Shown: in pieces, positions 14,655 through 64,000 of the stretch
Numbering within the stretch: the first letter of the stretch is position 1
Layout: each line of letters opens with the position of its first letter
NCBI GenBank assembly: GCA_965655095.1
Contig: OZ296652.1
Span: 39,680,001 to 39,744,000 of the forward strand
Reading direction: 5' to 3'
Source: Haplodiscus bocki
Taxonomy: Eukaryota
Length of the DNA stretch: 64,000 bases
Position numbers and translations under genes: made by a program
The notes under the pieces: model-generated
Databases searched by the model: none
What the model saw: the letters and a program-made list of their open reading frames with translations, nothing else
Told to the model about the DNA's origin: nothing

Positions 14655-14688
14655 CATGCTGCGTGAAAGGAAGTTAAAATAGTATAAA

Positions 14689-15190: not shown

Positions 15191-18100
15191 ACGCACATTT
15201 TTTAGGTAGTGTGTGTTAATCTTTTGGTCGCATATTTTGACTGGGTCTCCGACGTGGTCACTCCATTTTCTGACTAGCAGCTCTTTTTATGGGTATGTGA
15301 CTAGTCTTTTTCCAAGGTTTTTCCATATTTGAGATAATATAAAGTGTAACACCTGCTACATCTTCTTGAGCCATATTATGTTTTTTAAAAAGACAGTAAA
15401 GTTGTTTCAATCTTTAGGTTCAATTCGGATTAACCTGATACACAATTGATTCTAAAATGCCCTCCTTCAATCCCACCGAAAAAATAACTTGTGACAGTTG
15501 TGATACCCAAACCACAAGGAGCCATAGTGGCTCAGGAAAAAGGTCTTCCTGGATCCCTTACATGTCTTTCTTGTACCACGTTCTCAACAAAGTGTCGAGT
15601 TGAAACGATTTATTACATTACCAGGAAAATTTCTCCAGCAATTGCTAGAGCCGTGGTAATTACCGCAAAAAGTAATGTTGACATTTTCTGTAGGTTTCAA
15701 ATGGTTAGAGTCTCGTTCAAACCTTTCAACAATAAAACATTTTTCAGTTTTTTTGGAAATGGATTGATAGAGAAAAAATCATGGGAAAAAATGCATTTTT
15801 GAATATATTAAAAACGGAACGACAAATGCAATTGTCTGTTTGATAGTTCAATGATTTGTTTACATCAATGAGAAAAGACCTTGCTTTGTGATTCGGTAGA
15901 CCTCATTTTTGGGTATCGGCAGTCGAGTCTGTGACATTTTGCCAGCTTGAGGAAGCGTTTTGAGAAATTCAAGCAAATTGCAGAATGAGGTACCAAGTTC
16001 TTGTTCGGAGATATTTACTTCTCTTCCAAGAGATAACGCTGCTTTGTTTTCAAACCTCAAAAAAAAAATTTGTTTCTAGAAGATGTTCTATTGCGGCCTT
16101 TGCTAACTCGTGCTGTTCGAAGCTGGGACTTGGAAATTTCAACTATAATGTTGTTAAAAAAGTATACACATCCAAGTGACGCAAAACTTTGTTGTAACTG
16201 TTGGTAAAAAGATAAAGTTTGCACTAAGTGGGAATTGTTTTTTCGACAGCCAACATATGTTTTCAGTCAGTAATATCTGCAACTCTGTTTTTTGGAGGTA
16301 TAATTGTGAAAACAATGCGTCTAGACTCTGGCTTCCAGCCTTCCAGCGATAACAACGCTTTTCTTTTGACCAATCGCTTTCTAACGTCTGACTTTCAACA
16401 GCATACTGTGACATTATGGCATAATGATTGAGAAAAAGGATAGTTAACTAAACCACTAGAAGAACATACGTCAACAATTCCACGAATCGGAAGTTTTTAA
16501 ACAATTAACCACGCAATGTGTGTTATTCTCGTTTTTTTGTGGAACTCTTCGGATTGGCAGTTGAACCTAATTTAAACATGATAACCAAAATCTAACTCTC
16601 ACATAAACTGTCTCCCTATCATTGAAACTTGTTCCATTAGTGCGTGTTTCTCCGACAACTTGTCGCTCTACCGCAAGATCTTTTTTCAACTTGAACAAAA
16701 TCGCAGACTTTCTGTTTTCTTAGCAAGAAAAAAGGTTTCATTTGAGTGGTCTTCTCAGCCACTCTGTCGCCATATGGCAGCATCAATTTCCACCTGATTA
16801 ATTTCATCAAACAGACTGTCACTTTATGCAAGTTCTACTTGCTTAATTTTCCCTCAGAAAAACAAAGAACAGAAATGTGGCTCAAAAATTTGATAGAGAA
16901 TAACCTCACAAAATTTGTGCTAGAACTTCACTTGTGTATGAACTTTGGGGAAGCAACGTGGTCAATTCAATTTGCGAGTAGAATTAATGATTGAAATCGT
17001 AATCGTGAATACGGGACCAAACATTTTGTATCTGCTCATGTGAGCCTGGCTTTTATTTAAAGTCTCCAAAACATAGTGAATGTGAATTGAACATAACTTT
17101 TCGTCGATGGTAGTGTGTTCCGTATAACTCGAGAGCAATAAAAAAAACTAGCCCTAACAATCTCTACAGAACAACTTTAAACAGTTTGTGATAAAGTTTC
17201 GGTCGCGTATCATTTTGGGGCGCCAAGATGGTCACTCCAACTTCAGACTAACAGCCCTTTTTTTATCGGTATGTGATCAGTAATTCTTTTTATGGTATTT
17301 CCACATCTGAGATAAAATAAATTATGACAGTTGTAACATATATTTGCCCATTATTCCTCTTTTTAAGCTATAGTCAAGGTGCTCCGACCTTTTGATTAAC
17401 TTCAGATTGTTTCGTTACGCTATTGATTCTGAAATTCCCACTCTCGGTCGCACCAAAAAAATTGCTCGTGTTAGTTGTGGTACTCAAACCACAAGAAGCC
17501 ATTTTGGCTCACAAAAGACATTCTGCTGGATCACTTACTTGTCTTCCTGGTACCAATTTCTCAACAGAGTTTCAATTTGAATTGAAATATCACATTACCA
17601 ACAAAATTTCACTAGCCAAAGCCAGAGCGGTGGTAAAAATCGCGATAGAAAATGTTGAATTTATCTGTAAAGTAGAAGTGATTAACCTGTAGTTCAAACT
17701 TTTCAAGGAAAAAGGTGCAATTTTCAAAATTCTGAAAAAGAAATGATGAACGCATTTGTCTGTTTGATAGTTAAATGATTTGTTTATAGCAATGATAAAA
17801 GACCTTGTTTTGTGATTCAGTAGATCGAATCTCATTTCTGGGTTTCGGCAGTCGAACCTTTGACATTTTGCCGGCTTGAGGAAACGTTTTTAGAAATTCA
17901 AGCAAACTATGGAGTGAGGAACCAAATTCTTGTTCGGCGATGAACACTTCTGTTTCAAGAGATAAGGCTACTTTGTCTTCAAAACTCAAAAATAGAAAAA
18001 ATGTTTCTAGAAAGCGTTCTGTGGCGGCCTTCGCTAAATCATGCTATTCGATGCCGGGACTTGGAAATGTCAAAAACAAGGTTGTATAATCATCTTTATA

Positions 18101-21100
18101 CGTCCAACTGTCCCAAAGTTTTCCTTGTAACTGTTCGTAAAATGATACAGTTTGCACTAACTGGGAAGTGTTTGTTCGACAGCCAACAATAGTTTCCAAT
18201 CAATAATTTCCGCAAAAATTGTTTTTTGGGTGCATAATAGTGAAAGCAATGCGTTTGAATAAACAATGCGACTTCCAGCCTTCCAGTGACGGCAACGCTT
18301 TTCTTTTGACCAATCGTTTTTACACGTCTGACTTTTAACAGTAAATTGCGAAACTGTGGCACGATGATTGAGAGGAAAATGTTAATTAAGTCACTAGTAG
18401 AAAATACATCGAAAAATCCATGAAACAGAACTCTTCAACAAACAACTTCACAATCTGTGCTAGTTTCGATATTTTTTCTATTTGTAGAAGTCCTTCTGAT
18501 TGGCAGTTGAATCTAAATTAAAAGTGATAACCAAAATCTAAATCTCCCACAAGCTGTCTCCCTATCAGGGAAACTTGTTCCAATTGTGCGTCTTTGTCCA
18601 ACAAATTGTCACCCTACAGCAGGATCCTTTTTCTACTTGAAAATTTTTCGAGACTACCTGTATTCTGTCTTCCTAGCAAAGGAAAATGTTTCATGTGAGT
18701 GGTATTCTCAGCCACTCTGTCGCCATATGGCAACATCATATATCTACTTGATTATTTTCATCAAACCAACTGTCTCTTTATGCAAGTTCTACTTGCTTAA
18801 TTTTCCCCCAGAAAAACAAAAAACAAAATTGTGGCTCAAACATTCATAGAGAACAACCTCACAAACTTTGTGCTAGAATCTCACTTGTTTCTGATTTTTG
18901 GGGAAGCAACATGGTCAATTTAACTTGCGAGTAGAACTACTGATTGAAAACCTCAATGTGGTTATGTGACCAAATTTTGTGCATCTGCTCATGTGAACCT
19001 GGCTTTTAACTGTTCGTAAAAGATTACAATTTTTCTTTGAGCCAATATCTCTCTTGTAAATCTACAGTCAATGTGCTCCGATCTTTAGATTAGTTTTCAA
19101 ATGTTTCGTTACACCATTCTTTCTGAAATGCCCTCTGTCGGTCGCTACGAAGAAATTAATTGTGACAGTTGTGGTTACCAAACCACAAGAAGCCATGTTG
19201 GCTCGCTAAAGACATTCTGCTGGATCCCTTACTTGTCCCTCTTATACCAACTTCTCAACAGAGTTTCAAGTTGAATTGGAATATCACCTTGCCAACAAAC
19301 TTTCACCAGCAAATGCTAGAGCTGTAATAATTTTGGCAATAGAAATTGTAAAAAATTTCTGTAAGTGTGAACTGATTAACCTGTAGTTCAAAATTTGCAA
19401 GGGAAAAAATGCATTTTGGAATATTTTGAAAAAAGAATGATGAGCGCATTTGTCTGTTTCATAGTTAAATGATTTGTCTATAGCAATGTAAAAAGACATT
19501 GTTTTGTGATTGGGTAGATCCAATCTCATTTTTGGGTTCCGGCAGTCGAACCTCTGATATTTTGCCGGCTTGAGGAAACGTCTTGAAAAATTCAAGCGAA
19601 TTGTGGAGTGAGGAACCAATTTCTTGATCGGCGATTTTCACTTCTGTTTCAAGGGATAACGCTGCTTTGTCTTCAAACTTCAAGAAAGGAAATTTTTGTT
19701 TCTAGAAAATGATGTTCTATTGCGGCCTTTGCTAACTCGTGCTGTTCTAAGCCGGGACTTGGAAATGTCGAAAATAATGTTGTTAGAATAACTATCTACG
19801 TCCAACTATCCCAAAATTTTTTGGTAACTGTTGGTAAAATGGTAGACTTTGAGCTAACTGGGAAATGTTTTTCCGACAGCCGACAATTTCTTTCAGTCAG
19901 TAATTTCTGCATTTTTTTTGGAGGTATAATCGTGAAAACTATGCGTCTGGATGAAAACTCTGACTTCCAGCCTTCCAGTTTTAACAACACTTTTCTTTGG
20001 GCCAATCGCTTTTAAGCGTCTCACTTTTAAAAGTATACTGTGAAACTATGGTAATATTGATACCATAATGATTGAGATGAAGAATAGATGACTAAACCAA
20101 TAGAAGAACATACGTAAACAATTCCACGAATCAGAAGTTTTTAAACAATTAACTGCGCAATGTGCGTTATTCTCGTTTTTTTGTGGAACTCTTCTGATTG
20201 GCAGTTAAATCTAATTTAAACATGATAACCAAAATCTAACTCTCACACAAACTGTCTCCCTATCAAGGGAACTTGTTCCATTGGTGCGTTCTTCTCCGAC
20301 AACTTGTCGCCCTACCGCAGGATCCATTTCTACTTGAAGAAAATTGGAGACTACCTGTTTTGTTACCAAAGGAAAGTGTTTCATGTGAGTGGTCTTCTCG
20401 GCCACTCTGTCGCCATATGGCAGTATCTAATTTCTACTTGAATAAATTCATCAAACAGACTGTCTCTTAATGCAAGTTCTACTTGCTTATTTTTCCCTCA
20501 GAAAAACAAAGAACAAAAGTGTGGCTCAAAAGTCTGATAGAGAACAACCTCACAAAGTTTGTGTCAGAATTTCACTTGTGTATGAACTTTGGGGAAGCAA
20601 CGCGGTCAATTCAACTTGCGAGTGGAAATATTGATGGAAAACCTCACCGCGCTTATGGGACCAAATCTTGTGTATCTGCTCATGTGAACCTGGCTTTTAT
20701 TTAAAGTCTCCAAAATATAGTGAATGTGAAATGAACATAACTTTTGTCGCTGGTAGTGTTTTCCGTATAAAGCGAGAGCAATAGAAAAAACTAGCTCTAA
20801 CAACCAATACAGAACAATTTTAAATAGTTTTTGATAAATTTTCGGTCGCGTATCATTTTGGAGCACCAACGTGGTCCCTCCAACTTCAGACCAACAGAGA
20901 TTTTTGTGGGTATGTGACCAGTATTTTGTTCCGTGGTATTTCCACATTTGAGATAATGCAAAGTGTAGCAGTTGCTACATATCTTTGAGCCAATATCTCT
21001 CTTCTAAAGCTACAGTCAAGGTGCTCCGATCTTTAGATTATTTTCAGGTTGTTTCGTTACACTTTTGATTCTGAAATGCCCTCTCTCGGTCGGACCGAAA

Positions 21101-22007
21101 AAAAATACTTGTGACAGTTGTGGTACCCAAACAACAAGAAGCCATTTTGGCTCACAATAGAATTTCTGATGGATCCCTTATTTGTCCGTCTGGTACCAAT
21201 TTCTCAACAGAGTTTCAAGTTCATTTAGAATATCACATTGCCAACAAACTTTCACCAGCAAATGCTAGAGCTGTAGTATTTTTCGCGATCGAAAATTTTA
21301 AAATTTTCTGTAAGTTTGAATTGATCAACCTGTAGTACAAACTTTTCAAGAGAAAAAATGCAATTTTGATTAAATTGAAAAAGGAATGATAAACGCCTTT
21401 GTGTGTTTGATAGTTCAATGATTTCTTTAAAGCAATGAGAAAGAACTTTGTTTTGTGGTTCGGTAGATCCAATGTCGTTTTCGTATTTCGGCGGTCGAAG
21501 CTTAGATGTTTTGTCAGCTTGATAAAACGTATTGAAAAAATCAAGCAAATCGCGGAGTGAGGAACCAAGTTCTTGTTTGGAGAAACTTACATCTGTTACA
21601 GGACATAAGCTGCTTTACCTTCAAATCTGAAAAATTTAAAAACTTTTCTATAGAAGGCGTTCTGTTGCGGCCTTCGCTAAGTCATGCTGTCCGATGCCGG
21701 GACTACAAAATGTCAAAAACGATGTTGTAAAAATAACTTTGTACGTCAAAATGTCCCAAAGTTTATTGTAACTGTTGGTAAAAAGATGCAACTTGCACTC
21801 AGTGGGAAGTGTTTGTTCTACTGCGAAAAATAGCTTCCAATCAGTAATTTCTGCAAAAATTGTTTTTTGGATTCATATTCGTGAAAGCAATGCGTTTGAA
21901 TAAACAAGGCGACTTCCAGCGTTCCAGTCGAATCAATCGGATTAACTTCAGATTGTTTCGTTACACTATTGATTCTGAAATGCCCTCTCTCGGTCGGACC
22001 GAAAAAA

Positions 22008-22625
22008 TCAAATGTCACAGTTGTGGCATTCAGACCACAAGGAGCCATTCTGGCTCAGAAAAGACATTCTGCTTGATCCCTTACTTCTCCTTCTGGTACC
22101 AGTTTCCCAAGAGAGTTTCATTTTGAATTGAAAGATAAAAAGGCCCACAAATTTTTGCCAGCAAATGCTAGAGCTGTGGTACTTTTTGCGATGGAAAATG
22201 TAAGAATTTTCTGTGAGTTTGAATTGATCAATCTGCAGTACAAACTTTTCAAGGGGAAAAATGCAAGTTTGAATATTTTGAAATTGGTGTGATAAACGCA
22301 TTTGTGTGTTTAATAGTTCAGTGATTTGTTTAATGCAATGAGGACGGACCTTGTTTTGTGATTTGGTATATCCAATGTCGTTTTCGGGTTTCGGCAGTCG
22401 AAGCTTAGTTGTTTTGTCAGCTTGATAAAACGTTTTGAGAACGTCAAGCAAATCGTGGAGTGAGGAACCGGGTTTTTGTTTGGAGGTATTTACTTCTGTT
22501 ACAAGAGATAATGCTGCCTTACTTTCAAAATTCAAAAACGGAAACACTTGTTTCTGGAAGGCGTTCGTTGCGGCCTTCGCTAAATCATGCGATTCGATGC
22601 CGGGACTTGGAAAGGTCAAAAACAA
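22008..22625 (-). pseudogene. Longest open stretch (205 aa) of the monomer's minus-strand gene relic; possibly a PC4/Whirly-like ssDNA-binding fold
   Basis: The same frame (TEVNISEQELxSSLxxLLxxLKTF...PKPENDIGxTxSQ...QMRLS...CIFSxEKFxLQxxQFKLTE) recurs in almost every full monomer but is broken at different positions. The fold guess comes only from the strand-strand-helix ISxxELxxL pattern. Confidence 0.4.
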
Positions 22626-23360
22626 TGTTGTAAAAATAACTTTATACGTCCAACTGTCCCAAAGTCTTTTTGTAACTGTTCATGAACTGATACCATTTGC
22701 ACTAACTGGGAAGTGTTTGTTCGATAGCCAACAATAGTTTCCAATCGCTAATTTCGGCAAAAAATGTTTTTTGGATGCATAATCGTGAAAGCAATGCGTT
22801 TGGATAAACAACGCGACTTCCAGCCTTCCAGTAACGGCAACGCTTTTCTTCGGACCAATGGTTTTTACACGTCTCACTTTTAACAGTAAACTGCGAAACC
22901 GTGGCATGATGATTGAGAGGAAAAGGGTTAACTAGGTCACTAGAAGAAGACACATCAACAATTCCATGAATCAGAATTTTTCAACAATCAACTTCACCAT
23001 CCATGCTGTATTCGATATTTGTTCTCTTTGTAGAAATACTGCTAATTGGCAGTTGAATTTAAATTAGACAAGATAACCAAAATCTAAATCTCCCACAAGC
23101 TGTCACCCTATCAGGAGAACTTGTTCCAATTAGGCGTTTTTCTCCAACAAATTGTCACCCTACCGCATGATATTTTTCTACTAGAAAATATTTCGAGACT
23201 ACCTGTATTCTGACTTCTTAGCAAGGGTAATTGTTTCATGTGAGTGGTCATCTCAGCCACTCTGTCGCCTCATGGCTACATCAATTTTCTACCTGATAAT
23301 CTTCATGAAACAGACGGTCTCTTTATGCAAGTTCTATTTGCTTAATTTCCCCTCAGAAAA

Positions 23361-23783
23361 AGAACAAAAATGTGGCTCAAACTTTTGGTAGAGAACAACC
23401 TCACAAAGTTTGTGCTAAAATTTCACTTGTGTATGAACTTTGGGGAAGCAACATGGTCAATTTAACTTGCGAGTAGAAAGAATGATTGAAAACCTCAATG
23501 TGGTTATGTGACTAATTTTTGTGTATCTGCTCATGTGAACCTGGCTTTTAATTAAAGTATCCAAAACATAGTGAATGTGAAATGAACATAAAATTTTATC
23601 GATGGTAGTGTTTTTTGTATAAAACCGGAGCAATACGAAAACTAGCTCCAACAGTCGATAGAGAACAACTTAAAGTAGTTTGTGATAAAGTTTCGATCGC
23701 TTATCAACTATGGGGCGCCAACGTGGTCATTCCAAATTCAGACTAACAGCGCTTTTTTATGGGTATGTGACCAGTATTTTGTT
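23361..23783. repeat. Representative internal diverged direct repeat (~160 bp x2, 270-bp offset) present in each full monomer
   Basis: 23361-23523 versus 23631-23783: tagagaacaac at 23389/23659, tatgaactttggggaagcaacatggtca versus tatcaactatggggcgccaacgtggtca, and ggttatgtgac versus gggtatgtgac. Confidence 0.85.
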
Positions 23784-26700
23784 CTGTGGTATTTCCACAT
23801 TTGGGATAAAAAAAAGTGTAGCCCTTGCTACATATCTTTGAGCTGTTCTCTTTCTTGTAAAAATACAGTCAAGGTGCTCCGATCTTTAGAAAAATTTTCA
23901 ATTGTTTCTTTACACCCTTGATTCTGAAATGCCCTCTCTCGATCGCCCCAAAAAATTTTCTGCGACATTTGTGGTAACTAAACCACAAGAAGCCATTTTG
24001 GCTGACAAAAGACATTCTATTGGATCCCTTACTTGTCCTTCGGTACCAATTTCTCAACAGAGTTTCAATTAGAATTGAAATATCACATTGCCAACAAGTT
24101 TTCACCAGCAAATGCTAGAGCTATGGTAATTTTCGCGATGAAAAATGTAAAAATTTTCTGTAAGTTTGAATTGATCAACCTGTAGTACAAACTTTTCACG
24201 GGAAAAAATGCAAGTTTGAAAATTTTGAAATTGGTCAGATAAACGCATTTCTGTGTTTAATAGTTCAATTCTTTGTTTAATGCAATGAAAAAGGACCTTT
24301 GTTTGTGATTCGGTGTATCCAATGTCGTTTTCGGGTTTCGGCAGTCGAAGCTTAGTTGTTTTGTCAGCTTGATGAAACCTTTTGAGAATGTCAAGCAAAT
24401 CGCGGAGTGAGGAGCAAAGTTCTTGTTCGGAGATATTTACTTCTGTTACAAGAGATAATGCTGCTTTACTTTCAAAATTCAAAAACGGAAACACTTGTTT
24501 CTAGAAGGCCTTTTGTTGCGACCTTCGCTAAATCATCCTATTCGATGCCGGGACTTGGAAATGTCAAAAACAAGGTTGTAAAAACATCTTTATACGTCCA
24601 ACTGTCCCAAAGTTTTCCTTGTAACTGTTCGTAAAATGATACAGTTTGCACTAACTGGGAAGTGTTTGTTCGACAGCCAACAATAGTTTCCAATCAATAA
24701 TTTCCGCAAAAATTGTTTTTTGGGTGCATAATAGTGAAAGCAATGCGTTTGAATAAACAATGCGACTTCCAGCCTTCCAGTGACGGCAACGCTTTTCTTT
24801 TGACCAATCGTTTTTACACGTCTAACTTTTAACAGTAAATTGCGAAAGTGTGGCACGATGATTGAGAGGAAAATATTAATTAAGTCACTAGTAGAAAATA
24901 CATCAAAAAATCCATGAAACAGAACTCTTCAACAATCAACTTCACAATGTGTGCTAGTTTCGATATTTTTTCTATTTGTAGAAGTCCATCTGATTGGCAG
25001 TTGAATCTAAATTAAAAGTGATAACCAAAATCTAAATCTCCCACAAGCTGTCTCCCTATCAGGGAAACTTGTTCCAATTGTGCGTCTTTGTCCAACAAAT
25101 TGTCAACCTACAGCAGGATCCTTTTTCTACTTGAAAATTTTTCGAGACTACCTGTATTCTGTCTTCCTAGCAAAGGAAAATGTTTCATGTGAGTGGTATT
25201 CTCAGCCACTCTGTCGCCATATGGCAACATCATATATCTACTTGATTATTTTCATCAAACCAACTGTCTCTTTATGCAAGTTCTACTTGCTTAATTTTCC
25301 CCCAGAAAAACAAAAAACAAAATTGTGGCTCAAACATTCATAGAGAACAACCTCACAAACTTTGTGCTAGAATCTCACTTGTCTCTGATTTTTGGGGAAG
25401 CAACATGGTCAATTTAACTTGCGAGTAGAACTACTGATTGAAAACCTCAATGTGGTTATGTGACCAAATTTTGTGCATCTGCTCATGTGAACCTGGCTTT
25501 TAACTGTTCGTAAAAGATTACAATTTTTCTTTGAGCCAATATCTCTCTTGTAAATCTACAGTCAATGTGCTCCGATCTTTAGATTAGTTTTCAAATGTTT
25601 CGTTACACCATTCTTTCTGAAATGCCCTCTGTCGGTCGCTACGAAGAAATTAATTGTGACAGTTGTGGTTACCAAACCACAAGAAGCCATGTTGGCTCGC
25701 TAAAGACATTCTGCTGGATCCCTTACTTGTCCCTCTTATACCAACTTCTCAACAGAGTTTCAAGTTGAATTGGAATATCACCTTGCCAACAAACTTTCAC
25801 CAGCAAATGCTAGAGCTGTAATAATTTTGGCAATAGAAATTGTAAAAAATTTCTGTAAGTGTGAACTGATTAACCTGTAGTTCAAAATTTGCAAGGGAAA
25901 AAATGCATTTTGGAATATTTTGAAAAAAGAATGATGAGCGCATTTGTCTGTTTCATAGTTAAATGGTTTGTCTATAGCAATGTAAAAAGACATTGTTTTG
26001 TGATTGGGTAGATCCAATCTCATTTTTGGGTTCCGGCAGTCGAACCTCTGATATTTTGCCGGCTTGAGGAAACGTCTTGAAAAATTCAAGCGAATTGTGG
26101 AGTGAGGAACCAATTTCTTGATCGGCGATTTTCACTTCTGTTTCAAGGGATAACGCTGCGTTGTCTTCAAACTTCAAGAAAGGAAATTTTTGTTTCTAGA
26201 AGATGATGTTCTATTGCGGCCTTTGCGAACTCGTGCTGTTCTAAGCCGGGACTTGGAAATGTCGAAAATAATGTTGTTAGAATAAATATCTACGTCCAAC
26301 TATCCCAAAATTTTTTGGTAACTGTTGGTTAAATGGTAGACTTTGAGCTAATTGGGAAATATTTTCCCGACAGCCGACAATTTCTTTCAGTCAGTAATTT
26401 CTGCATTTTTTTTGGAGGTATAATCGTGAAAACTATGCGTCTGGATGAAAACTCTGACTTCCAGCCTTCCAGTTTTAACAACACTTTTCTTTGGGCCAAT
26501 CGCTTTTAAGCGTCTCACTTTTAAAAGTATACTGTGAAACTATGGTAATATTGATACCATAATGATTGAGATGAAGAATAGATGACTAAACCAATAGAAG
26601 AACATACGTAAACAATTCCACGAATCAGAAGTTTTTAAACAATTAACTGCGCAATGTGCGTTATTCTCGTTTTTTTGTGGAACTCTTCTGATTGGCAGTT

Positions 26701-29551
26701 AAATCTAATTTAAACATGATAACCAAAATCTAACTCTCACACAAACTGTCTCCCTATCAAGGGAACTTGTTCCATTGGTGCGTTCTTCTCCGACAACTTG
26801 TCGCCCTACCGCAGGATCCATTTCTACTTGAAGAAAATTGGAGACTACCTGTTTTGTTACCAAAGGAAAGTGTTTCATGTGAGTGGTCTTCTCGGCCACT
26901 CTGTCGCCATATGGCAGTATCTAATTTCTACTTGAATAAATTCATCAAACAGACTGTCTCTTAATGCAAGTTCTACTTGCTTATTTTTCCCTCAGAAAAA
27001 CAAAGAACAAAAGTGTGGCTCAAAAGTCTGATAGAGAACAACCTCACAAAGTTTGTGTCAGAATTTCACTTGTGTATGAACTTTGGGGAAGCAACGCGGT
27101 CAATTCAACTTGCGAGTGGAAATATTGATGGAAAACCTCACCGCGCTTATGGGACCAAATCTTGTGTATCTGCTCATGTGAACCTGGCTTTTATTTAAAG
27201 TCTCCAAAATATAGTGAATGTGAAATGAACATAACTTTTGTCGCTGGGTAGTGTTTTCCGTATAAAGCGAGAGCAATAGAAAAAACTAGCTCTAACAACC
27301 AATACAGAACAATTTTAAATAGTTTTTGATAAATTTTCGGTCGCGTATCATTTTGGAGCACCAACGTGGTCCCTCCAACTTCAGACCAACAGAGATTTTT
27401 GTGGGTATGTGACCAGTATTTTGTTCCGTGGTATTTCCACATTTGAGATAATGCAAAGTGTAGCAGTTGCTACATATCTTTGAGCCAATATCTCTCTTCT
27501 AAAGCTACAGTCAAGGTGCTCCGATCTTTAGATTATTTTCAGGTTGTTTCGTTACACTTTTGATTCTGAAAAGCCCTCTCTCGGTCGGACCGAAAAAAAA
27601 TAATTGTGACAGTTCTGGTACCCAAACAACAAGAAGCCACTTTGGCTCACAATAGAATTTCTGATGGATCCCTTATTTGTCCGTCTGGTACCAATTTCTC
27701 AACAGAGTTTCAAGTTCATTTGGAATATCACATTGCCAACAAACTTTCACCAGCAAATGCTAGAGCTGTAGTATTTTTCGCGATCGAAAATTTTAAAATT
27801 TTCTGTAAGTTTGAATTGATCAACCTGTAGTACAAACTTATCAAGAGAAAAAATGCAATTTTGATTAAATTGAAAAAGGAATGATAAACGCCTTTGTGTG
27901 TTTGATAGTTCAATGTTTTCTTTAAAGCAATGAGAAAGAACTTTGTTTTGTGGTTCGGTAGATCCAATGTCGTTTTCGTATTTCGGCGGTCGAAGCTTAG
28001 ATGTTTTGTCAGCTTGATAAAACGTATTGAAAAAATCAAGCAAATCGCGGAGTGAGGAACCAAGTTCTTGTTTGGAGAAACTTACATCTGTTACAGGACA
28101 TAAGCTGCTTTACCTTCAAATCTGAAAAATTTAAAAACTTTTTTATAGAAGGCGTTCTGTTGCGGCCTTCGCTAAGTCATGCTGTCCGATGCCGGGACTA
28201 CAAAATGTCAAAAACGATGTTATAAAAATAACTTTGTACGTCAAAATGTCCCAAAAATTATTGTAACTGTTGGTAAAAAGATGCAACTTGCACTCAGTGG
28301 GAAGTGTTTGTTCTACTGCGAAAAATAGCTTCCAATCAGTAATTTCTGCAAAAATCGTTTTTTGGATTCATATTCGTGAAAGCAATGCGTTTGAATAAAC
28401 AAGGCGACTTCCAGCCTTCCAGTGACGGCAACAGTTTTCTTTTGAACAATCGTTTTTACACGTGTCACCTTCAACAAAAAATTGCAAATCTGTGACATAA
28501 TAATTGAGAGGAAATGGGTTAACTAGGTCACTAGAAGAAAACGCATCGACAAATCCACGAATCAGAATTTTTCAACAATCATCTTCACAATCTGTGCTGT
28601 TTTTGATATTTGTTCTCTTTGTAGAATCCTTCTGATTGGCAGTTGAATCTAAATTAGACATCGAAACCAAAATCTAAATCTCACACAACCTGTATCCCTA
28701 TCAAGGGAACTTGTTCCAATTGTGCATTTTTGTCAAACAAATTGTCAACCTACCGTAGGATCCTTTTTCTACTTGAAAAAATTTCGAGACCACCTGTCTT
28801 CTGTCTTCTTGGCAAGGGAAAATATTTCATGTGAGTGGTCTTCTCAGCCACTCTGTCGCCATATGGCAGCACCAATTTTCTACTTGATTGTTTTCATCAA
28901 ACAGGCTGCCTCCCTATGCAGTTTGTACTTGCTTTGTTTTCCCTCAGAAAAAAAAGTGCATAAAAGTGGCTCACAGTTTTTCTAGAGAACAACCGCACAA
29001 AGCATGAGCTAGAATTTCAGTTGTGTATGACTTTTGGGGGAAAGAACGTGGTCAATTTAACTTGCGAATGGAAATATTGATTGAAAACTTCAATGTGGTT
29101 ATGTGACCAAATTTTGTGTATCTGCTCATGTTATTCTGGCTTTTATTTAAAGTCTCCAAAACATAGTGAATGTGAAATGAACTTACCTTTTTATGGATGG
29201 TAGTGTTTTTTTTAAAAAACCACAGCAATACGAAAAACTAGCTCTAACAATCGGTAGAGAACAACTTTAATTAGTTTGTGATAAAGTTTTGGTCGCTTAT
29301 CATTCATGGGACGCCAACGTGGTCACTCCAGCTTCCGACTAACAGCGATTTTTATGGGTATGTGACCAGTATTTTATTCTGGGGTATCTCCACATTTGAG
29401 ATAATACAAAGTGCAGCAGTTGCTACATATCTTTGAGCCATTATCTCTCTTGTAAAGCTATAGTTAAGGTGTTCCGCTCTTTAGATTAACTTCAGATTGT
29501 TTCGTTACACTATTGATTCTGAAATGCCCTCTCTCGGTCGGACCGAAAAAA

Positions 29552-30169: not shown

Positions 30170-30274
30170 TGTTGTAAAAATAACTTTATACGTCCAACTG
30201 TCCCAAAGTCTTTTTGTAACTGTTCATGAACTGATACCATTTGCACTAACTGGGAAGTGTTTGTTCGATAGCCA

Positions 30275-38100: not shown

Positions 38101-39286
38101 TCAATAATTTCCGCAAAAATTGTTTTTTGGGTGCATAATAGTGAAAGCAATGCGTTTGAATAAACAATGCGACTTCCAGCCTTCCAGTGACGGCAACGCT
38201 TTTCTTTTGACCAATCGTTTTTACACGTCTGACTTTTAACAGTAAATTGCGAAACTGTGGCACGATGATTGAGAGGAAAATGTTAATTAAGTCACTAGTA
38301 GAAAATACATCGAAAAATCCATGAAACAGAACTCTTCAACAAACAACTTCACAATCTGTGCTAGTTTCGATATTTTTTCTATTTGTAGAAGTCCTTCTGA
38401 TTGGCAGTTGAATCTAAATTAAAAGTGATAACCAAAATCTAAATCTCCCACAAGCTGTCTCCCTATCAGGGAAACTTGTTCCAATTGTGCGTCTTTGTCC
38501 AACAAATTGTCACCCTACCGCAGGATCCTTTTTCTACTTGAAAATTTTTCGAGACTACCTGTATTCTGTCTTCTTAGCAAAGGAAAATGTTTCATGTGAG
38601 TGGTCTTCTCAGCCCCTCTGTCGCCATATTGCAACATCAAATATCTACTTGATTACTTTCATCAAACCAACTGTCTCTTTATGCAAGTTCTACTCGCTTT
38701 ATTTTCCCTCAGAAAAACAGAGAAAAAAATTGTGGCTCAAACATTCATGGAGAACAACCTCACAAAGTTTGTGCTAGAATTTTACTTGTCTATGATTTTT
38801 GGGGAAGCAACATGGTCAATTTAACTTGCGACTAGAACTAATGATTGAAAACCTCAATGTGGTTATGTGACCAAAATTTGTGCTTCTGCTCATGCGAACC
38901 TGGCTTTTAATTAAAGTATCCAAAACATAGTGAATGTGAAATGAACATAACTTTTTATCGATGGAAGTGTTTTTTGTATAAAACCCGAGCAATACAAAAA
39001 CTAGCTCTAGCAATTGATAGAGAACAACTTTCGATAGTTTGTGATAAAAGTTCAGTCAGTTATCGTTTATGGGCCGCCAACGTGGTCACTCTAACGTCAG
39101 ACTAACAGAGTTTTTTATGTTTATGTGACCAATATTTTGTTCTGTGGTTTTTCCACATTTGAGATAATAAAAGATGTAGCACTTGCTACATATCTTTGAG
39201 CCAAAATCTCTCCTGTAAATCTACAGTCAAGGTGCTCCGATATTTAGATTAATTTCAGATTGTTTCGTTACACTATTGATTCTGAA

Positions 39287-54701: not shown

Positions 54702-57700
54702 TGCCCTCTCTCGATCGCCCCAAAAAATTGTCTGTGACAATTGTGGTAACCAAACCACAAGAAGCCATTTTGGCTCGCAAAACACATTCTGCTGGATCCC
54801 TTACTTGTCCATCTTATACCAATTTCTCAACAGAGTTTCAAGTTGAATTGGAATATCACCTTGCCAACAAACTTTCACCAGCAAATGCTAGAGCTGTAAT
54901 AATTTTGGCAATAGAAATTGTAAAAAATTTCTGTAAGTGTGAACTGATTAACCTGTAGTTCAAAATTTGCAAGGGAAAAAATGCATTTTGGAATATTTTG
55001 AAAAAAGAATGATGAGCGCATTTGTCTGTTTGATAGTTCAATGATTTGTTTATAGCAATGATGAAAGACCTTGGTTTGTAATTCACTAGATCCAACCTCA
55101 TTTTGGGTTTCGGCAGTCGAATCTTTGACCTTTTGCCGGATTGAGGAAACGCTTTGAGAACTTCAAGCAAGTTGTGGAGTGAGGAACCAAAATCTTGTTC
55201 GGCTAATTACTTGTTTTTCAAGAGAAAACGCTGCTTTGTCTCCAAACCTCAAATATGGAAAAATTTCTTTCCAGAAGATGTTCTATTGCGGCCTTTGCTA
55301 ACCCGTGCTGTTCGAAGCTCGGACTTGGAAATGTCAAAAAAATGTTGGTAAAATAGGTATATACCTTCAACTGACCCAAAATTTTGTTGTAATTGTTCGT
55401 AGATTGATACAAATTGTTCTAATTGGGATGTGTTTGTTCGACAGCCAACAATAGTTTCCAATCAGTAATTTCTGCAAAAATTATTTTAGGATGCATAATC
55501 GTGAAAGCAATGCGTTTGGATAAACAATGCGACTTCCAGCCATCCAGTGACGGCAACGCTTTTCTTTTGACCAATCGTTTTCACACGTCTCACTTTTAAC
55601 AGTAAATTGCAAAACTGTGGCATATTGATTGAAATGAAAACGGTTAAACAGGTCACTAGTAGAAAACACATCAACAAATCCGAATTTTTCAACAATCATC
55701 TTCACAATCTGTGCTGTTTTTGATATTTTCTTTCATTTTAGATATCCTTCTGATTGGCAGTTGAATCTACTTTAGACATGATAACCAAAATCTAAATCTC
55801 ACACAATCACACAAGCTGTCTCTCTATCAGGGGAACTTGTTCCAATTGTGCGTTTTTCTCCAACAAACTGTCACCCTACCGCATTATCCTTTTTATAGTT
55901 GAAAAACTTTCGAGACTACCTGTCTTCTTAGCAAGGGAAAAAGTTTCATGTGAGTGGTCTTCTCAGCCACTCTGTCGCCATATGGCAGCATCAATTTTTT
56001 AATTGATTTTTTTCATCAAACAGACTGTCTCCTTATGCAATTTCTACTTGCTGAATCTCCCTCAGAAAAAAAGAACAAAAATGAGGCTCACAAAGTTGAT
56101 AGAAAACGAACTCTTAGAAATTGTTCTAGAGTTTCTGTTTTGCATCAATTTTGGGTGAAGCATTGTGGTCAATTTATCTTGCGAGTGGAAATATTGATCG
56201 AAAACTTCAATGTGGTGGTATGACCAACTTTTGAGTATCTGCTCATGTGAAACTGGCTTTTATTTAAAGTCTCCAAAGCATAGAGAATATGAAATAAACC
56301 CAACGTTTCATCGATGGTAGTGTTTTTTGTAAAAAACCAAAGCAATACGAAAAACTAGCTCTAGCAATTGATAGAGTACAACTTTAGGTAGTTTGTGATA
56401 AAGTTTTGGTCGCTTATCAATTATGTGGCGCCAAGGTCGTCACTCCAACTTCAAACCAACAGCGTTTTTTATGGGTATGTGACCAACATTTTGTTCTGTG
56501 GTTTTTCCACATTTGAGATAACATAAATTGTAGCCGTTGCTACATATCTTTGAGCTATTCTCTTTCTTGTAAAGTTACAGTCAAGGTGCTGCGGTCTTTA
56601 GATTAGTTTTCAATTGTTTTGTTACGCCATTGATCCTGAAATTCCCTCCCTCGTTCGCTCCGAAAAATTTACTTGTGACAGTTGTGGTACCCAAACCACA
56701 ACAAGCCATGTTGGCTCACAAAGGACATTCTGCTGGATCCCTTACTTGTCCTTCTGGTGCCAATTTCCGAACAGAGTTTCAAGTTCATTCGGAATATCAC
56801 ATTGCCAACAAACTTTCACCAGCAAATGCTAGAGCTGTAGTATTTTTCGCCATCGAAAATTTGAAAATTTTCTATAAGTTTGAAATGGTTAACCTGTATT
56901 TCAAAATTTTCATGGGAAAAGATGCAGTTTTGAAAATATTGAAAATGGAATGATAAACGCATTTGTGTTTTTGATGGTTGAATGATTTTCTTGAAGCTAT
57001 GAGAAAGGATCTTGCTCTGTGATTCGGTCGATCCGATGTCGCTTTTGGGTTTCGGCACTCGAAGCTTAGATGTTTTTTCAGCTTGATAGAACGTTTTGAA
57101 AAAGTCAAGCAAATCGCGGAGTGAGGAATCAAGTTCTTGTTTGGAGATATCTACTTCTGTTACAGGAGAAAACGCTGCTTTACCTTCAAATCTCAAAAAT
57201 CGAAAAACTTGTTTCTAGAAGGCGTTCTCTTGCGACCTTCGCTAAGTCATGCTATTCGATGCCGGGACTTGGAACTGTCAAAAACAAGGTTGTAAAAACA
57301 ACTTTATACGTCCAACTGTCCCAAAGTTTTCTTTGTAACTGTTCGTAAAATGATACAATGTGAACTAAATGGGAAGTGCTTGTTCGACAGCCAACAATAA
57401 GTTCCAATCAGTAATTTCTGGAAAAACTGTTTTTTGAAAGAATAATCGTGAAAGCAATGCGTTTGGATGAACAATGCGACTTCCAGCGTTCCAGTCACGG
57501 CAACGCTTTTCTTTTGCCCAATCGTTTTTGCACGTCTCACTTCAAATTGTAAATTGCAAAACTCTGGCAAAATGATTGAGAGGAAAAGGGTTAACTAGGT
57601 CACTAGAAGAAAACACATCAAAAAATCCATGAATCAGAAGATTTTCAACCATCTAGTTCACGATCGGTGCTGTTTTCGATATTTATTCTCTTTGTGGAAG

Positions 57701-60700
57701 TCCTTCTGATTGGCAGTTGAATCTAAAGTAGATATGATAAGCAAAATATAAATCTCAGACAAGCTGTCTCCCTATCAGGGGAACTTGTTCCAATTAGGCG
57801 TTTATATCCAACAAATTGTCACCCTACCGCAATATCCTTGTTCTACTTGAAAAATTTTCGAAAAAACCTGTCCTCTGTCTTCTTAGCGAAGGGAAAATGT
57901 TTCATGTGGGTGATCTTCGCAGCTACTCTGTCGCCATATGGCAGCATCATTTTTCTATTTGATTATTTTCATCAAACAGGCTGTCGCCTTATGCAAGTTC
58001 TACTTGCTTCATTTTCCCTCAGAAAAAAAGGACAAAAATGTGGCTCGCAAAATTGATAGAGAACAACCTCACAAAGTTTGAGCTAGAGTTTCATTTGTGT
58101 ATGAATTTTGGGGAAGCAACGTTGTCAATTTAAATTGCGAGTGGAAAAATTGATTGAAATCTTCAATGTGATAATGTGACCAATTTTTATGTATCTGCTC
58201 ATGTAACCCTGGCTTTTGTTTAAAGTCTCCAAAACAAAGTGAATATGAAATGAACCTAACTTTTTATCGATGGTAGTGTTTTTTGTAGAAAACCAAAGCA
58301 ATTTGAAAAACTAGCTCTAACAATCCATAGGGAACAAATTTAGGTAGCTGGTGAGAAAGTTGCGGTCGCTTATCAATTATGGGGTGCCAACGTGGTCACT
58401 CCAACTTCAGACTAACACCGCTTTTTTTGGGTATCTGACCAGTATTTTGATCTGTGGTTTTTCCACATTTGAGATAATAAAAAGTGTAGCCGTTGATAGA
58501 TATCTTTGAGCCATTATCTCTCTTGTAAAGCTATAGTTAAGGTGTTCCGCTCTTTAAATTAACTTCAGATTGTTTCGTTACACTATTGATTCGGAAATGC
58601 CTTATGTCGGTGGCGCCGAAAAAATTACATGTGACAGTTGTGGTAACCAAACCACAAGAAGCCATGTTGGCGCACATAGGACATTCTGCTGGATCCCTTA
58701 CTTGTCCTTCTGGTACCAATTTCTGAACAGAGTTTCAAGTTGAATTGAAATGTCACATTGCCAACAAACCTTCACCAGCAAAAGCTAGAACCGTGATGAA
58801 AATCGTGATGGAAACTGTTGAAATCTTCTGTAAGTTTGAATTGATTCACCTGTAGTTCAAAGTTGTCACGGAAAAAAAATGCTATTTTGTTTATATTAAA
58901 AATGGATTGATAAACGCATTTGTCTGTTTGAGAGTTCGATGTTCTGTTTCAAAGCAATGAGAAAGGACCTTGTTTTGTGATTCGTTAGATCCAATCTCGG
59001 GTTTGGGTTTCGGCTGTCCAATCTGTAATATAATGCCAGCTTCAGGAAATGCTTTTCAAAAAGTCACGCAAATCGCGGAGTGGGGAACCAAAGTCCTGTT
59101 CGGATATACTTATTCTTTTAGAGGAGGTAACACTTCTTTGTCTCCAAATCTCAAAAAAGGAAATTTTTTTCCAGGAGACATTCCGTTGCGGCCTTAGCTA
59201 TCTCGTGCTAATCAATTCCGGGGCTAGCAAATGTCGATAACAATGTTGTAAAAATAATTTTATACGTCCAACTGTGCCAAAAAACTTTTTGAAACTGTTC
59301 GTAAAATGACACAATTTGCAGTAACTGGGAAACATTTTTTCGACAACCAACAATAGTTTACAGTCGCTAAGTTCTGCATAAAGTGTTTTTTGCATGCATA
59401 ATCGTGAAAGCAATGCGTTTGCATAAACAATGCGACTTCCAGCCTTCCAGTGACGGCAACGCTTTTCTTTTGACCAATCGTTTTCACACGTCTCACTTTT
59501 AACGGTAAATTGCAAAACTGTGGCAAAATGATTGAGAGGAAAAGGGTTAACTAGGTCACTAGAAGAAAACACATCAAAAAATCCATGAATCGGAAGATTT
59601 TCAACCATCTAGTTCACAATCTGTGCTGTTTTCGATATTTGTTCTTTTTGTAGAAGTCCATCTGAATGGCAGTTGAATCTAAATTAGACATGATAACCAA
59701 AATCTAAATCTCACACAAGCTGTCTCCCTATCAGGGGAACTTGTTCCAATTGTTCGTTTTTCTCCAACATTTTGTCGCCCGACCGCAGGATCCTTTTTGT
59801 ACTTGAATTTTCCGGGACTACTTGTCATCTTGGCTAAGGGAAAATGTTTCATGTGAGTGGTCTTCTCAACCATTCTGTCATAATATGGCAGCATCATATT
59901 TCTACTTGATTGCTTTCATCCAACAGACTGTCCTTTCATGAAAATTCTAGTTGCTTTCGTTTCCCTAAGAAAAAAAAGAACAAAAATGTGGCTCACAAAA
60001 TTGATAGAGAACAACCTCACAAAATTTGTGCTAGAACTTCACTTGTCTATGATTTTTGGGGAAGCAACATGTTCAATTTATCTTGCGAGTAGAAAGAAAG
60101 ATTGAAAACCTCAATATGGTTCTGTGACCAAATTTTGTGTATCTGCTCATGTGAACCTGGCCTTTAATTAAAGTATCCCAAACATAGTGAATGTGAAATG
60201 AACATAACTCTTTATCGATGGTATTGTTTTTCGTATAAAACCAGAGATATACGAAAAACAAGCTCTAACAAATGATAGAGAACCACTTTAGGTAGTCTGT
60301 GATAAATTTTCGGTCACCTATCTTTTTTGGGGCGTCAACGTGGTTACCCCAACTTCAAACTAACAGCGCTTTTTTATCGGTATGTGACCAGTATTTTGTT
60401 CTGTGTTGTTTCCACGTTTGAGATAGTATAAAGTGTAGCAGTTGCTACATATCTTTAAGCCATTCTCTTCCATGTGAAGCTACATTCAAGGTGCTCCGAT
60501 CTTTAGATTATTTTCTATTTGTTTCGTTACACCATTGATTCTGAAATGCCCTCTCTCGGTGGCGAGGAAAAAATTACTTGTGACAATTGTGTTAACCAGA
60601 CCACAAGATGCCATGTTGGCTCACAAAAGACATTCTGCTGGATCCCTTACATGTCCCTCTGGTACCAAATTCACAACAGAATTTCAAGTTGAATAGAAAT

Positions 60701-63700
60701 ATCACATTGCCAACAAATTTTCACCAGCAAGTCTTAGAACTCTGGTAAAAATCGGGATGGAAAATGTTGAAATCGTCTGTAAGTTTGAATTGATTCACCT
60801 GTAGTTCAAACTTGTCAATGAAAAAATGCAATTTTGAATATATTGAAAATGGGTTGATAAACGCATTTGTCTGTTTGAGGGTTCGATGTTCTGTTTAAAA
60901 CAATGAAAAGGGACCTTGTTTTGTGATTTGATAGATCTAATCTCATCTTCGGGTTTCGGCTGTCGAATCTGTAATAAAATGTCAGCTTCAGTAATTGCTT
61001 TTCAAAAAATCACGCAAATCTCGGTGTGGGGAACCAAAGTCCTCTTCGGAGATACTTATTCTTTTAGAGGAGGTAACATTTCTTTGTCTTCAAATCTCAA
61101 AAAACGAAATTTATTTTCTAGAAGACGTTCCGTTGCGGCCTTTGCTATCTCGTGCTATTCAATGCCGGTAGTAGGAAATGTCAAGAACATTAATATAGAA
61201 AAAATTTTGTACGTCCAACTGTCCCAAAAGTTTTTTTGAAACTCTTCGTAAAATGATACATTTTGCACTAACTGGGAAGTGTTTTTTCGACAGCCAACAG
61301 AAGGGTACAATCAATAAGTTCTGCAAAAAATGTTTTTTGCATGAATAAACGTGAAGGCAATGCGTTTGAATAAACAATGCAACTTTCGGGCTTTCATTGA
61401 TGGAAACACTTTTCTTTTGACCAATCGCTTTTCAACGTCTCACATTCAACAGTAAATCGTGAATCTGTGGCATAATGATTGAGAAGAAAAAGTTTAACTA
61501 GGTCTCTAGAAGAAAATACATCAACAAATCCAAGAATCAGAAATTTTTCAGCAATCAACTTCACAGTCTGTGCTATTTTCGATATTTGTTCTTTTTGTAG
61601 AAGTCCATCTGATTGGCAGTTGAATCTAAATTAGACATGATAACCAAAATCTAAATCTCACACAAGCTGTCCCCCTATCAGGGGAACTTGTTCCAATTGT
61701 GCGTTTTTATCCAACAGTTTATCGCGCGACCGCAGCATCTTCTTTGGACTTGAATTTTCTGAGACTACATGTCATCTTGGCTAAGGGAAAATGTTTCATG
61801 TGAGTGGTCTTCTCAACCACTCTGTCATAATATGGCAGCATCATATTTCTACTTGATTGCTTTCATCCAACAGACTGTCCCTTCTTGCAAATTCTAGTTG
61901 CTTTCGTTTCACTCGGAAAAAAAGAACAAAAATGTGGCTCACAAATTTGATAGAGAACAACCTCACAAAATTTGTGCTAGAACTTCACTTGTCTATGATT
62001 TTTGGGGAAGCAACATGGTCAATTTATCTTGCGAGTAGAAGGAAAGGTTGAAAACCTCAATATGGTTCTGTGACCAAAATTTGTGTATCTGCTCATCTGA
62101 ACCTGGCCTTTAATTAAAGTATCCCAAACATAGTGAATGTGAAATGAACATAACTCTTTATCGATGGTATTGTTTTTCGTATAAAACCAGAGATATACGA
62201 AAAACAAGCTCTAACAAATGATAGAGAACCACTTTAGGTATTCTGTGATAACGTTTCGGTCACCTATCTTTTTTGGGGCGTCAACGTGGTTACCCCAACT
62301 TCAAACTAACAGCGCTTTTTTATCGGTATGTGACCAGTATTTTGTTCTGTGGTATTTCTACGTTTGAGATAGTATAAAGTGTAGCAGTTGCTACATATCT
62401 TTAAGCCATTCTCTTCCATGTGAAGCTACATTCAAGGTGCTCCGATCTTTAGATTAGTTTCTATTTGTTTCGTTACACCATTCATTCTGAAATGCCCTCT
62501 CTCGGTGGCGAGGAAAAAATTACTTGTGACAATTGTGTTAACCAGACCACAAGATGCCATGTTGGCTCACAAAGGACATTCTGCTGGATCCCTTACTTGT
62601 CCCTCTGGTACCAATTTCTCAACACAATTTCAAGTTGAATTGAAATATCACATTGCCAACAAATTTTCACCAGCAAATCCTAGAACTGTGGTAAGAATCG
62701 GGATGGAAAATGTTGAAATCTTCTGTAAGTTTGAATTGATCCACCTGTAGTTCAAACTTGTCAATGAAAAAAAGCAATTTTGAATATATTGAAAATGGGT
62801 TGATAAACGCATTTGTCTGTTTGAGAGTTCGATGTTCTGTTTAAAGCAAAGAAAAGGGACCTTGTTTTGTGATTTGCTAGATCTAATCTCATCTTCGGGT
62901 TTCGGCTGTCGAATCTGTAATAAAATGTCAGCTTCAGTAATTGTTTTTCTAAAAATCACGCAAATCGCGGAGTGGGGAACCAAAGTCCTGTCTGGAGATA
63001 CTTATTCTTTTAGAGGATGTAACACTTCTTTGTCTTCAAAACTCAAAAAAGGAATTTTTTTTTCAAGAAGACGTTCCGTTGCGGCCTTTGCTATCTCGTG
63101 CTATTCAATGCCGGGAGTAGGAAACGTCGAGAACAATGTTGTAGAAAAAATTTTGTACGTCCAACTGTCCCTAAAGTTTTTTTGAAACTCTTCGTGAAAA
63201 GATTCATTTTGCACTAACTGGGAAGTGTTTTTTCGACAGCCAACAATAGTTTTACAGTCAATAAGTTCTGGAAAAAATGTTTTTGCATGGATTTTAGTGA
63301 ACGCAATGCGTTTGGATAAACAATGCGACTTCCAGCCTTCCAGTGACGGCAACGATTTTCTTTTGACCAATCGTTTTTACACGTCTCACTTTTAACGGTA
63401 AATTGCAAAACTGTGGCATATTGATCGAGCAGAAAAAGTTTAACTAGGTCACTAGAAGAAAATACATCAACAAATCTAAGAATCAGAAATTTTTCAGCAA
63501 TCAACTTCACAGTCTACGCTATTTTCGATTTTTGTTCTTTTTGTAGAAGTCCATCTGATTGGCAGTTGAATCTAAATTAGACATGATAACCAAAATCTAA
63601 ATCTCACACAATCTGTCCCCCTATCAGGGGAACTTGCTCCAATTGTGCGTTTTTCTCCAACGATTTATCGCGCGACCGCAGCATCTTCTTTGGACTTGAA

Positions 63701-64000
63701 TTTTCTGAGACTACATGTCATCTTGGCTAAGGGAAAATGTTTCATGTGAGTGGTCTTCTCAACCACTCTGTCATAATATGGCAGCATCATATTTCTACTT
63801 GATTGCTTTCATCCAACAGACTGTCCCTTCTTGCAAATTCTAGTTGCTTTCGTTTCACTCGGAAAAAAAGAACAAAAATGTGGCTCACAAATTTGATAGA
63901 GAACAACCTCACAAAATTTGTGCTAGAACTTCACTTGTCTATGATTTTTGGTGAAGCAACATGGTCAATTTATCTTGCGAGTAGAAAGAAAAATTGAACA

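Follow-up and report, generated by a model that had tools for sequence, protein, structure and literature searches.

The 64,000-nucleotide window of the Haplodiscus bocki genome that we analyzed contains a tandem macrosatellite array on the plus strand (15201–64000). It comprises 30 units arranged head-to-tail, extends for at least 48.8 kb, and is still open at the window end. Sixteen units are full length (1941–1975 bp) and one more is cut by the window end; the shorter classes consist of five units of 1.74–1.83 kb, one of 1.11 kb, and seven of 0.81 kb. The array is AT-rich (GC 34–38%), and pairwise identity between units ranges from 72% to 100%, with a median of 84%. Its head-to-tail arrangement and 1.95-kb monomer place it in the size range given in part of PMC12692304 (monomers above 500 bp). 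An Rfam search returned no family. A first-pass annotation had described a complex ~1.95-kb monomer repeated in tandem from 15201 to 64000 and called it a ~49-kb macrosatellite. We recovered both the monomer and the array in this form, but ~49 kb is a minimum rather than the full length because the array continues past the window edge.

Higher-order structure, which that annotation had also anticipated, takes the form of repeated 3.9-kb blocks and a 2.76-kb repeat. One 3.9-kb block (18044–21921) has a second copy ~6.5 kb on, the pair spanning 18044–28417 on the plus strand with 99.2% identity over 3701 bp. A recent 3.9-kb duplication of two monomers (30270–38103, plus strand) shows 6 mismatches in 3801 bp; the right ends of both spans were calculated from repeat spacing. 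Between 39029 and 54441 (plus strand) lies a domain in which the seven deletion units of 0.81 kb occur together with a higher-order repeat of 2.76 kb (1.95 + 0.81), whose blocks are 97.1% and 98.4% identical in the two pairs compared. Some units are mosaics, in which the nearest neighbor switches along the unit length. Local homogenization, mosaics, and higher-order repeats together reveal concerted turnover. The 3.8-kb pair with only 6 differing sites could also be taken as a sign of faulty assembly, either of the whole array or of its higher-order blocks. Mis-assembly may change the copy number of the youngest blocks; however, the divergence between units (median identity 84%, down to 72%) is beyond its reach, and the array contains distinct deletion variants and mosaics, making an artifact most improbable.

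Relic genes in the monomer and flank

The long minus-strand relics previously noted in the monomer include one with database homology, which we call gene W. In unit 1 it occupies 15649–16317 (minus strand) with its 3' end cut, and in other units it lies at offsets ~455–1100. Of 1056 candidate database proteins, 916 belong to the W family; these 916 are unnamed, and the many different long contigs that carry them suggest that they are dispersed. The best non-self matches share 35–41% protein identity with W (E down to 6e-32). At E≤1e-5 the window matches 163 of 166 fetched database proteins and a shuffled window matches none, a result that indicates homology but is not an independent sample, because the search that gathered these proteins had started from a seed in the window. 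The minus-strand ORF over W that was searched initially is an alternative frame; the P0094 frame appears to be the true one.

Adjoining unit 1 is a relic of a second gene, X, together with sequence beyond it (14697–15203, minus strand, which is putative for 14697–14957), representing parental sequence at the array edge. Gene X is Cys-rich and follows W in database proteins, where the two abut without introns. Database proteins that extend beyond W match the edge relic (P0034 residues 215–368, E 1.3e-10; P0037, E 1.1e-9; P0161, E 1.6e-6; P0050, E 7e-6). A relic ORF fused to unit 1 had earlier been placed at 14689–15190; an adjoining relic is indeed present, with its database homology on the minus strand, and the plus frame is the most open of the six (2 stops in 169 codons versus 6–8 in the other five). 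At this edge the array retains the W-then-X order of the database proteins. On other contigs there are hints of W-X segments that have been multiplied locally.

Neither W nor X acquired a name from our searches. Pfam (17 proteins) returned no family, and there were no matches in PHROGs (10 proteins) or in the PDB, whether by sequence or by profile. One ESM Atlas search was blank and the other gave a best value of 0.89 to an unnamed entry, and cluster look-ups of 20 W/X proteins yielded none with a name. Structural models of the W family are poor (mean pLDDT 46.5 when folded with an alignment, and 37.2). The alignment-based model had no match among viral structures, and no W model had a structural match at E≤0.001; the best Z score was 4.1, to unrelated proteins, with Pur-alpha at 3.7. 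In a low-confidence W-family model, the order of elements (four strands, then a C-terminal helix) is that of the PC4 fold, and PC4/Sub1/Pur-alpha folds fill 10 of the 11 top ranks in a Foldseek search, led by MoSub1 (E 0.14). These models offer a weak lead toward a PC4/Sub1-like fold for gene W.

On the plus strand, the monomer carries a zinc-finger gene stub of ~60 codons (15457–15648), frameshifted after the first CxxC and truncated at the junction with W. The CxxC zinc-finger start recognized in the first-pass annotation is real though broken: all 25 units that were read, out of 30, have the initial CxxC and the latter half of the stub in different frames. Relative to its flank paralog, the stub shows no codon periodicity (0.26/0.27/0.27 over 79 bp). 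No Pfam family scored above the cut-off, and two homolog searches found no relatives among 31 and 8 candidates, blanks that constitute weak evidence because both searches required exact shared words. The stub may represent the beginning of a pPolB gene. Animal Polinton polymerases have similar zinc-finger starts. For pPolB N-termini, the published accounts consulted name terminal-protein and OTU domains, and not a zinc finger.

The remainder of the monomer (16318–17175, minus strand) holds the relic of a third gene, A, of which offsets ~1305–1620 match the left flank. The flank copy, a dispersed gene A paralog at 975–1221 (minus strand), reaches 56 bits by blastn against a shuffle maximum of 36.5 bits, and has a tblastn E of 4e-6 with no matches in 10 shuffles. 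It is the better flank paralog and had been missed previously. A dispersed paralog of the zinc-finger stub lies at 1540–1710 (plus strand); the interval 1540–1638 was identified by blastn and tblastn and belongs to family D3, and the extension to ~1710 was made by eye. This agrees with a paralog proposed earlier at 1551–1700, as the 1540–1638 match scores up to 58 bits versus 36.5 for the best of 20 shuffled flanks. Another, proposed at 2020–2135, did not hold up, being a 29-bp match of 33.7 bits within the shuffle range. With respect to A, the flank zinc-finger paralog is oriented and placed just as the stub is across unit borders in the array. Gene A divergence from the flank copy is codon-periodic (Fisher p=0.03); in a second gene A block, per-site periodicity is not clear. 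In unit 1, the segment 15201–15374 (minus strand) reads as a putative 5' stub of gene A, head-to-head with the zinc-finger gene and ~85 bp from its ATG; the ATG of this stub may be the gene A start. A LINE RT relic is weakly seen in the flank.

In the W frame, dN/dS is 1.15, 1.19, and 0.83 in three reference units and 0.99 pooled over 105 pairs. Judged on these values and on the broken zinc-finger stubs, the array is free of protein-level constraint; it is non-coding and drifting neutrally, with neutral divergence established in W. Because divergence between units is neutral, it was a dead fragment that was amplified in place. Stop-free stretches in the array reach 223 codons and could suggest that working genes, either of the host or domesticated, are clustered here in tandem. 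However, the 223-codon stretch crosses more than one relic frame, dN/dS is near 1 in W, W is interrupted by frameshifts and in-frame stops in the three reference units, and the stub is broken in every unit read, so that a functional cluster is hardly credible.

Identity of the parental element

The monomer is homologous to a high-copy element and keeps its gene order. With good confidence, we interpret the array as a transposon-derived macrosatellite from an old copy of a gene-dense, high-copy element, for which a Polinton/Maverick or adintovirus is the likeliest candidate. That a multi-gene internal fragment was amplified in place beside its parent, as originally suggested, is upheld by the W-X and A/zinc-finger order; for the Polinton or viral part of that suggestion, no hallmark gene was matched.

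A Polinton is the likely parent. Indirect pointers in this direction are the compact gene layout, a possible resemblance of the zinc-finger stub to the starts of animal Polinton polymerases, the weak PC4/MoSub1-like fold of W, and the adintovirus "MOSUB" label, which appears with "SSDBP" among the accessory gene labels on adintovirus maps (PMC8502044, text of Suppl. Fig. S2). Sections of the same paper describe CxxC-rich small genes near PolB in adintoviruses. The parent resembles Polintons/Mavericks and adintoviruses, as portrayed in parts of PMC4028283 and PMC8502044, in being gene-dense and high-copy and in leaving degraded endogenous copies. In contrast to these elements, no pPolB, RVE integrase, FtsK-like ATPase, protease, capsid, or terminal repeats were detected in the window: homolog, Pfam, and PHROGs searches gave no match to these genes, and within 1–15700 no pair of inverted repeats exceeds 40 nt, the window holding an internal fragment only. 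Polintons also feature target-site duplications. Six-frame Pfam scans of the left flank found no families in 24 frames, and these scans are insensitive because they missed the LINE RT relic too. For genomic context, a phage collection gave no match, and two scans of bacterial and archaeal genomes gave 208 and 59 pattern matches, none of them confirmed. Nothing was found in one part of an adintovirus supplement, mostly a network file, or in 4,040 characters of coral-polintovirus supplement text.

The same satellite mechanism could have acted on a different gene-dense parent, such as a non-Polinton endogenous DNA virus, a Helitron, or another large cargo transposon. Neither the zinc-finger stub nor any of the genes W, X, and A has a named relative in Pfam, PHROGs, the PDB, or the ESM Atlas, none of the 20 clusters consulted bears a name, and satellites often originate from Helitrons according to PMC12692304. 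We nonetheless view another parent as unlikely, given that the weak PC4/MoSub1 lead agrees with an adintovirus map label, that W and X adjoin without introns in database proteins, and that the insensitive six-frame scans show no Helitron or transposase domain in the flank.

Formation of the satellite and related systems

From the array itself, the W and X homology, gene order, common junction, mosaicism, and neutral divergence in W, we infer the following course of events for a probable Polinton parent. The parental layout would have been X <- W <- A / zinc-finger gene ->. A founding piece of ~1.95 kb would have run from near the W 3' end through A and the divergent intergenic gap to the first ~60 zinc-finger codons. 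A single head-to-tail duplication of this piece would have created the new zinc-finger/W junction common to all units; the junction region is present in 30 of 30. The array may then have been expanded and shuffled by unequal exchange, by copying of a break-induced or rolling-circle type, and by gene conversion, which would account for the mosaic units, the 0.81-kb deletion unit, and higher-order spacings of 2.76, 3.9, and 6.5 kb. At the left edge, a deletion of ~1.7 kb could have joined the gene A 5' stub to the remainder of X. Position 15201 is probably a break point and not a natural monomer junction, and the natural phase would place that junction near 15648.

A head-to-head gap occurs in every full unit and adjacent units read as convergent, raising the idea that the array is a maintained small-RNA source whose dsRNA or piRNA precursors would be directed at the element family; the 916-member W family would provide a large target. 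In detail, a divergent promoter gap kept in each unit would cause tandem strands to be transcribed into each other, a scheme we find doubtful. The small-RNA reading as a whole is improbable as well: protein identity to the best relatives is 35–41% and DNA identity between array units and the flank relic is 63–78%, too distant for small-RNA pairing with those copies. With equally little confidence, we speculate that the array could be a self-made antiviral locus in which a Polinton divergent-promoter piece would serve as a convergent transcription cassette in each unit and yield double-stranded or piRNA precursors that target an abundant family of endogenous viruses. If so, locally multiplied W-X segments would be a sign that Polinton fragments have turned into macrosatellites repeatedly by this path.

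Transposon-derived satellites are already known, one of them matching Polinton coding sequence, and the H. bocki array is a larger, multi-gene variant. LmiSat34-299 of Locusta migratoria, a transposon-derived satellite homologous to Polinton CDS (PMC4935994, in part), is likewise a tandem repeat that arose from mobile-element coding sequence, and would belong to the same source class if our parent is a Polinton, in which case the present monomer is much larger than this 299-bp Polinton-derived case. Whereas LmiSat34-299 repeats 299 bp, the H. bocki monomer spans 1.95 kb and includes parts of three genes in two orientations, and its array has higher-order blocks and adjoins the next parental gene. 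Searches of an open-access library showed no kilobase example of such a satellite, and one may still exist in print.

The array follows a known satellite-making route, of which it is an example unusual in its size and legibility. The origin of a satellite usually has to be deduced from matches that are short and eroded; here it can be followed gene by gene, through the parental order, the one junction that founded the array, the neighboring parental gene retained at its edge, and the higher-order turnover that came afterward. It is well suited as a test case for how mobile-element debris gives rise to kilobase macrosatellites and to higher-order repeats, and it leaves general principles unchanged. 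The macrosatellite D4Z4 carries the DUX4 gene. D4Z4 (3.3 kb), DXZ4 (3 kb), and NBL2 (1.4 kb), as described in part of PMC8122249, share with the H. bocki array a kilobase monomer, head-to-tail arrangement, and tens of copies, whereas the H. bocki array is distinguished by its AT-richness, its divergent units (median 84%), and a gene W without coding constraint.

Organization of the macrosatellite array

Comparison of the window with itself revealed that a 2-kb slice from 15200 recurs in tandem through to the window end. Cut at matched positions, the array resolves into 30 units, of which 16 are full (1941-1975 bp), seven measure 0.81 kb, five 1.74-1.83 kb and a single one 1.11 kb; the remaining unit is truncated by the window end. 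Because the units reach the window end and the right end lies beyond it, the array is at least 48.8 kb long. Pairwise identity between units is 72-100% (median 84%), and the most diverged include unit 1 (15201-17175) and the last four (56383-64000), hinting that the array's right edge may sit shortly past the window. GC content is flat (34-38%), and an Rfam search found no family.

Larger blocks also recur. A 3.9-kb block (18044-21921) has a second copy ~6.5 kb further along (99.2% identity), a block of two monomers starting at 30270 has a copy with six mismatches over 3801 bp, and a 2.76-kb unit consisting of 1.95 and 0.81 kb recurs at ~39-54 kb (97.1% and 98.4% identity in the two pairs compared). 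All seven short units lack one common ~1.15-kb interval. For 400-bp segments, the nearest neighbor often switches along one unit; the units are therefore mosaics. Both the tandem array of ~1.95-kb monomers at 15200-64000 and the higher-order structure proposed in the first-pass annotation are thus borne out, the former with its length as a lower bound.

Relic genes in the monomer and its flank

A native minus-strand ORF of the array has 42 relatives among 1.84 billion representatives. For one of these, P0025, 916 proteins were found among 1056 candidates; the 120 of these that were listed come from ENA, have neither names nor Pfam domains and lie mostly on long contigs. Proteins of this family change frame at differing places, a pattern that would fit dead copies of one gene, here termed W (minus strand, unit offsets ~455-1100, 3' end cut). 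At E<=1e-5, 163 of 166 fetched proteins matched the window and none matched a shuffled window; these proteins were reached from a window seed, and their matches show homology only. The best non-self matches have 35-41% identity. When units are compared in the W frame, dN/dS comes to 1.15, 1.19 and 0.83 with three different units as reference; the pool of 105 pairs, which mix frames and are not independent, gives 0.99. No constraint on W is visible among array units.

Where database proteins extend past W, they run on, without introns, into the Cys-rich gene X, of which a stand-alone ORF is also known (P0160). Minus-strand sequence at 15203-15042 matches X (E 1e-9 to 3e-4), and for protein P0034 the match reaches 14697. 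Since X matches this relic beside unit 1 and follows W in the database proteins, we infer that the relic is the parent's gene next after W, in keeping with the earlier expectation that the monomer is still attached to parental sequence. With only two stops in 169 codons, the plus frame of 14697-15203 may in part represent a parental gene running convergently. This open frame lies in exact antisense register to X. Separately, the W-X proteins P0053 and P0160-P0162 share a 90%-identity cluster and one longest-contig value (515,145), as do P0158 and P0167 (127,810), hinting at local multiplication of the W-X segment elsewhere too.

In the left flank, a relic at 975-1221 matches unit offsets 1306-1621 (up to 56 bits) and another at 1540-1638 matches the start of the plus-strand zinc-finger gene (up to 58 bits), against 36.5 bits for the best of 20 shuffles. 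Their strand and order are the same as across array unit borders. Of two flank paralogs claimed previously, the zinc-finger one thus stands; the other, at 2020-2135, amounts to a 29-bp match within shuffle range. Within 996-1098, differences affect 6 of 34 sites at the middle codon position, as against 26 of 69 at the first and third (Fisher p=0.03), indicating that this segment was once coding (gene A). Because plus-frame stops are common to both copies, A probably lies on the minus strand. The per-site codon pattern was not seen in two shorter blocks, too small to show it, and codon periodicity is absent between the zinc-finger stub and its flank paralog. None of the 25 units read has an unbroken stub. 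By eye, the flank stub also ends after ~50 codons, adjoining gene-like minus-strand sequence (1710-2250), as though this flank relic had undergone a comparable rearrangement.

Identity of the parental element

We consider the parental element probably a Polinton or adintovirus, given the intronless W-X arrangement, a fold lead for W, gene labels and CxxC genes of adintoviruses, and zinc-finger starts like the stub's, which occur on Polinton polymerases from invertebrates. For a W-family protein, a single-sequence model, poor at pLDDT 37, has four strands and a helix. Foldseek placed PC4, Sub1 or Pur-alpha folds at 10 of the 11 top ranks, with a nonsignificant best match to MoSub1 (E 0.14); in a wide structural search the best Z was 4.1, to unrelated proteins. 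The labels MOSUB, presumably denoting MoSub1-like, and SSDBP stand on adintovirus maps (label text of PMC8502044 Suppl. Fig. S2), and CxxC-rich small genes are placed upstream of PolB in adintoviruses (PMC8502044 section 3.2). Some adintoviruses carry separate zinc-finger genes, according to a passage of 10.1101/2024.03.25.586562. In the relevant passages of PMC11071308 and PMC8502044, pPolB N-termini are described with terminal-protein and OTU domains and no zinc finger is named; a passage of 10.1101/2023.08.22.554363 deals with an HNH domain, and term searches of PMC11131425, PMC7859515, PMC12220804 and 10.64898/2026.10.13.758929 brought up nothing relevant.

The defining Polinton genes encode pPolB, RVE integrase, FtsK-like ATPase, protease and capsid proteins (PMC4028283), none of which was matched in the searches made. 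The zinc-finger stub, as native ORF or read through its break with an unspecified residue there, found no relatives, and flank scans for Pfam families were blank; the same scans also missed a LINE reverse transcriptase (RT) relic. Phage and bacterial/archaeal collections yielded no genomic context for the database relatives. Of the suggestion that a virus/Polinton-like fragment was amplified, the multi-gene part is supported by the W-X order and by the order of A and the zinc-finger gene, and the Polinton part is probable.

Proposed history and comparison

The parental order would have been X <- W <- A / zinc finger ->. In the phase we favor, the natural monomer would comprise W (3' cut), A, a divergent gap and the zinc-finger stub, with a new joint from stub to W near 15648, a region covered by all 30 units. 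In the simplest history, an internal fragment, already dead, would have been duplicated once in tandem; growth and shuffling would have followed, presumably via unequal exchange, conversion or related turnover, which are among the satellite mechanisms listed in PMC8122249. A deletion of roughly 1.7 kb may have shaped the left edge.

It is well established that satellites can arise from parts of transposons (PMC12692304); a 299-bp locust satellite, for instance, matches a Polinton CDS (PMC4935994). The present case differs in scale and legibility: the monomer is 1.95 kb long and spans three genes in two orientations, its array has higher-order repeats, and the parent's next gene still adjoins it. 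The mode of origin itself is a familiar one. We assign no function to the array. The boldest reading, a putative convergent-transcription small-RNA locus directed against the element, appears very unlikely, given how far the units have diverged from the relatives identified.

The left flank holds other features. A decayed LINE-type RT region lies at 5130-6830 (plus strand), with further RT-like motifs by eye; its Pfam RVT_1 match at 5485-5712 (E 0.003) fell below the cut-off. Degenerate 25-39-bp repeats (families D1, D2, D4, D5 and D7) cluster at 3745-4700 and, with an inverted partner at 9241-9275 (inverted pair I2), possibly represent another small repeat or transposon end.
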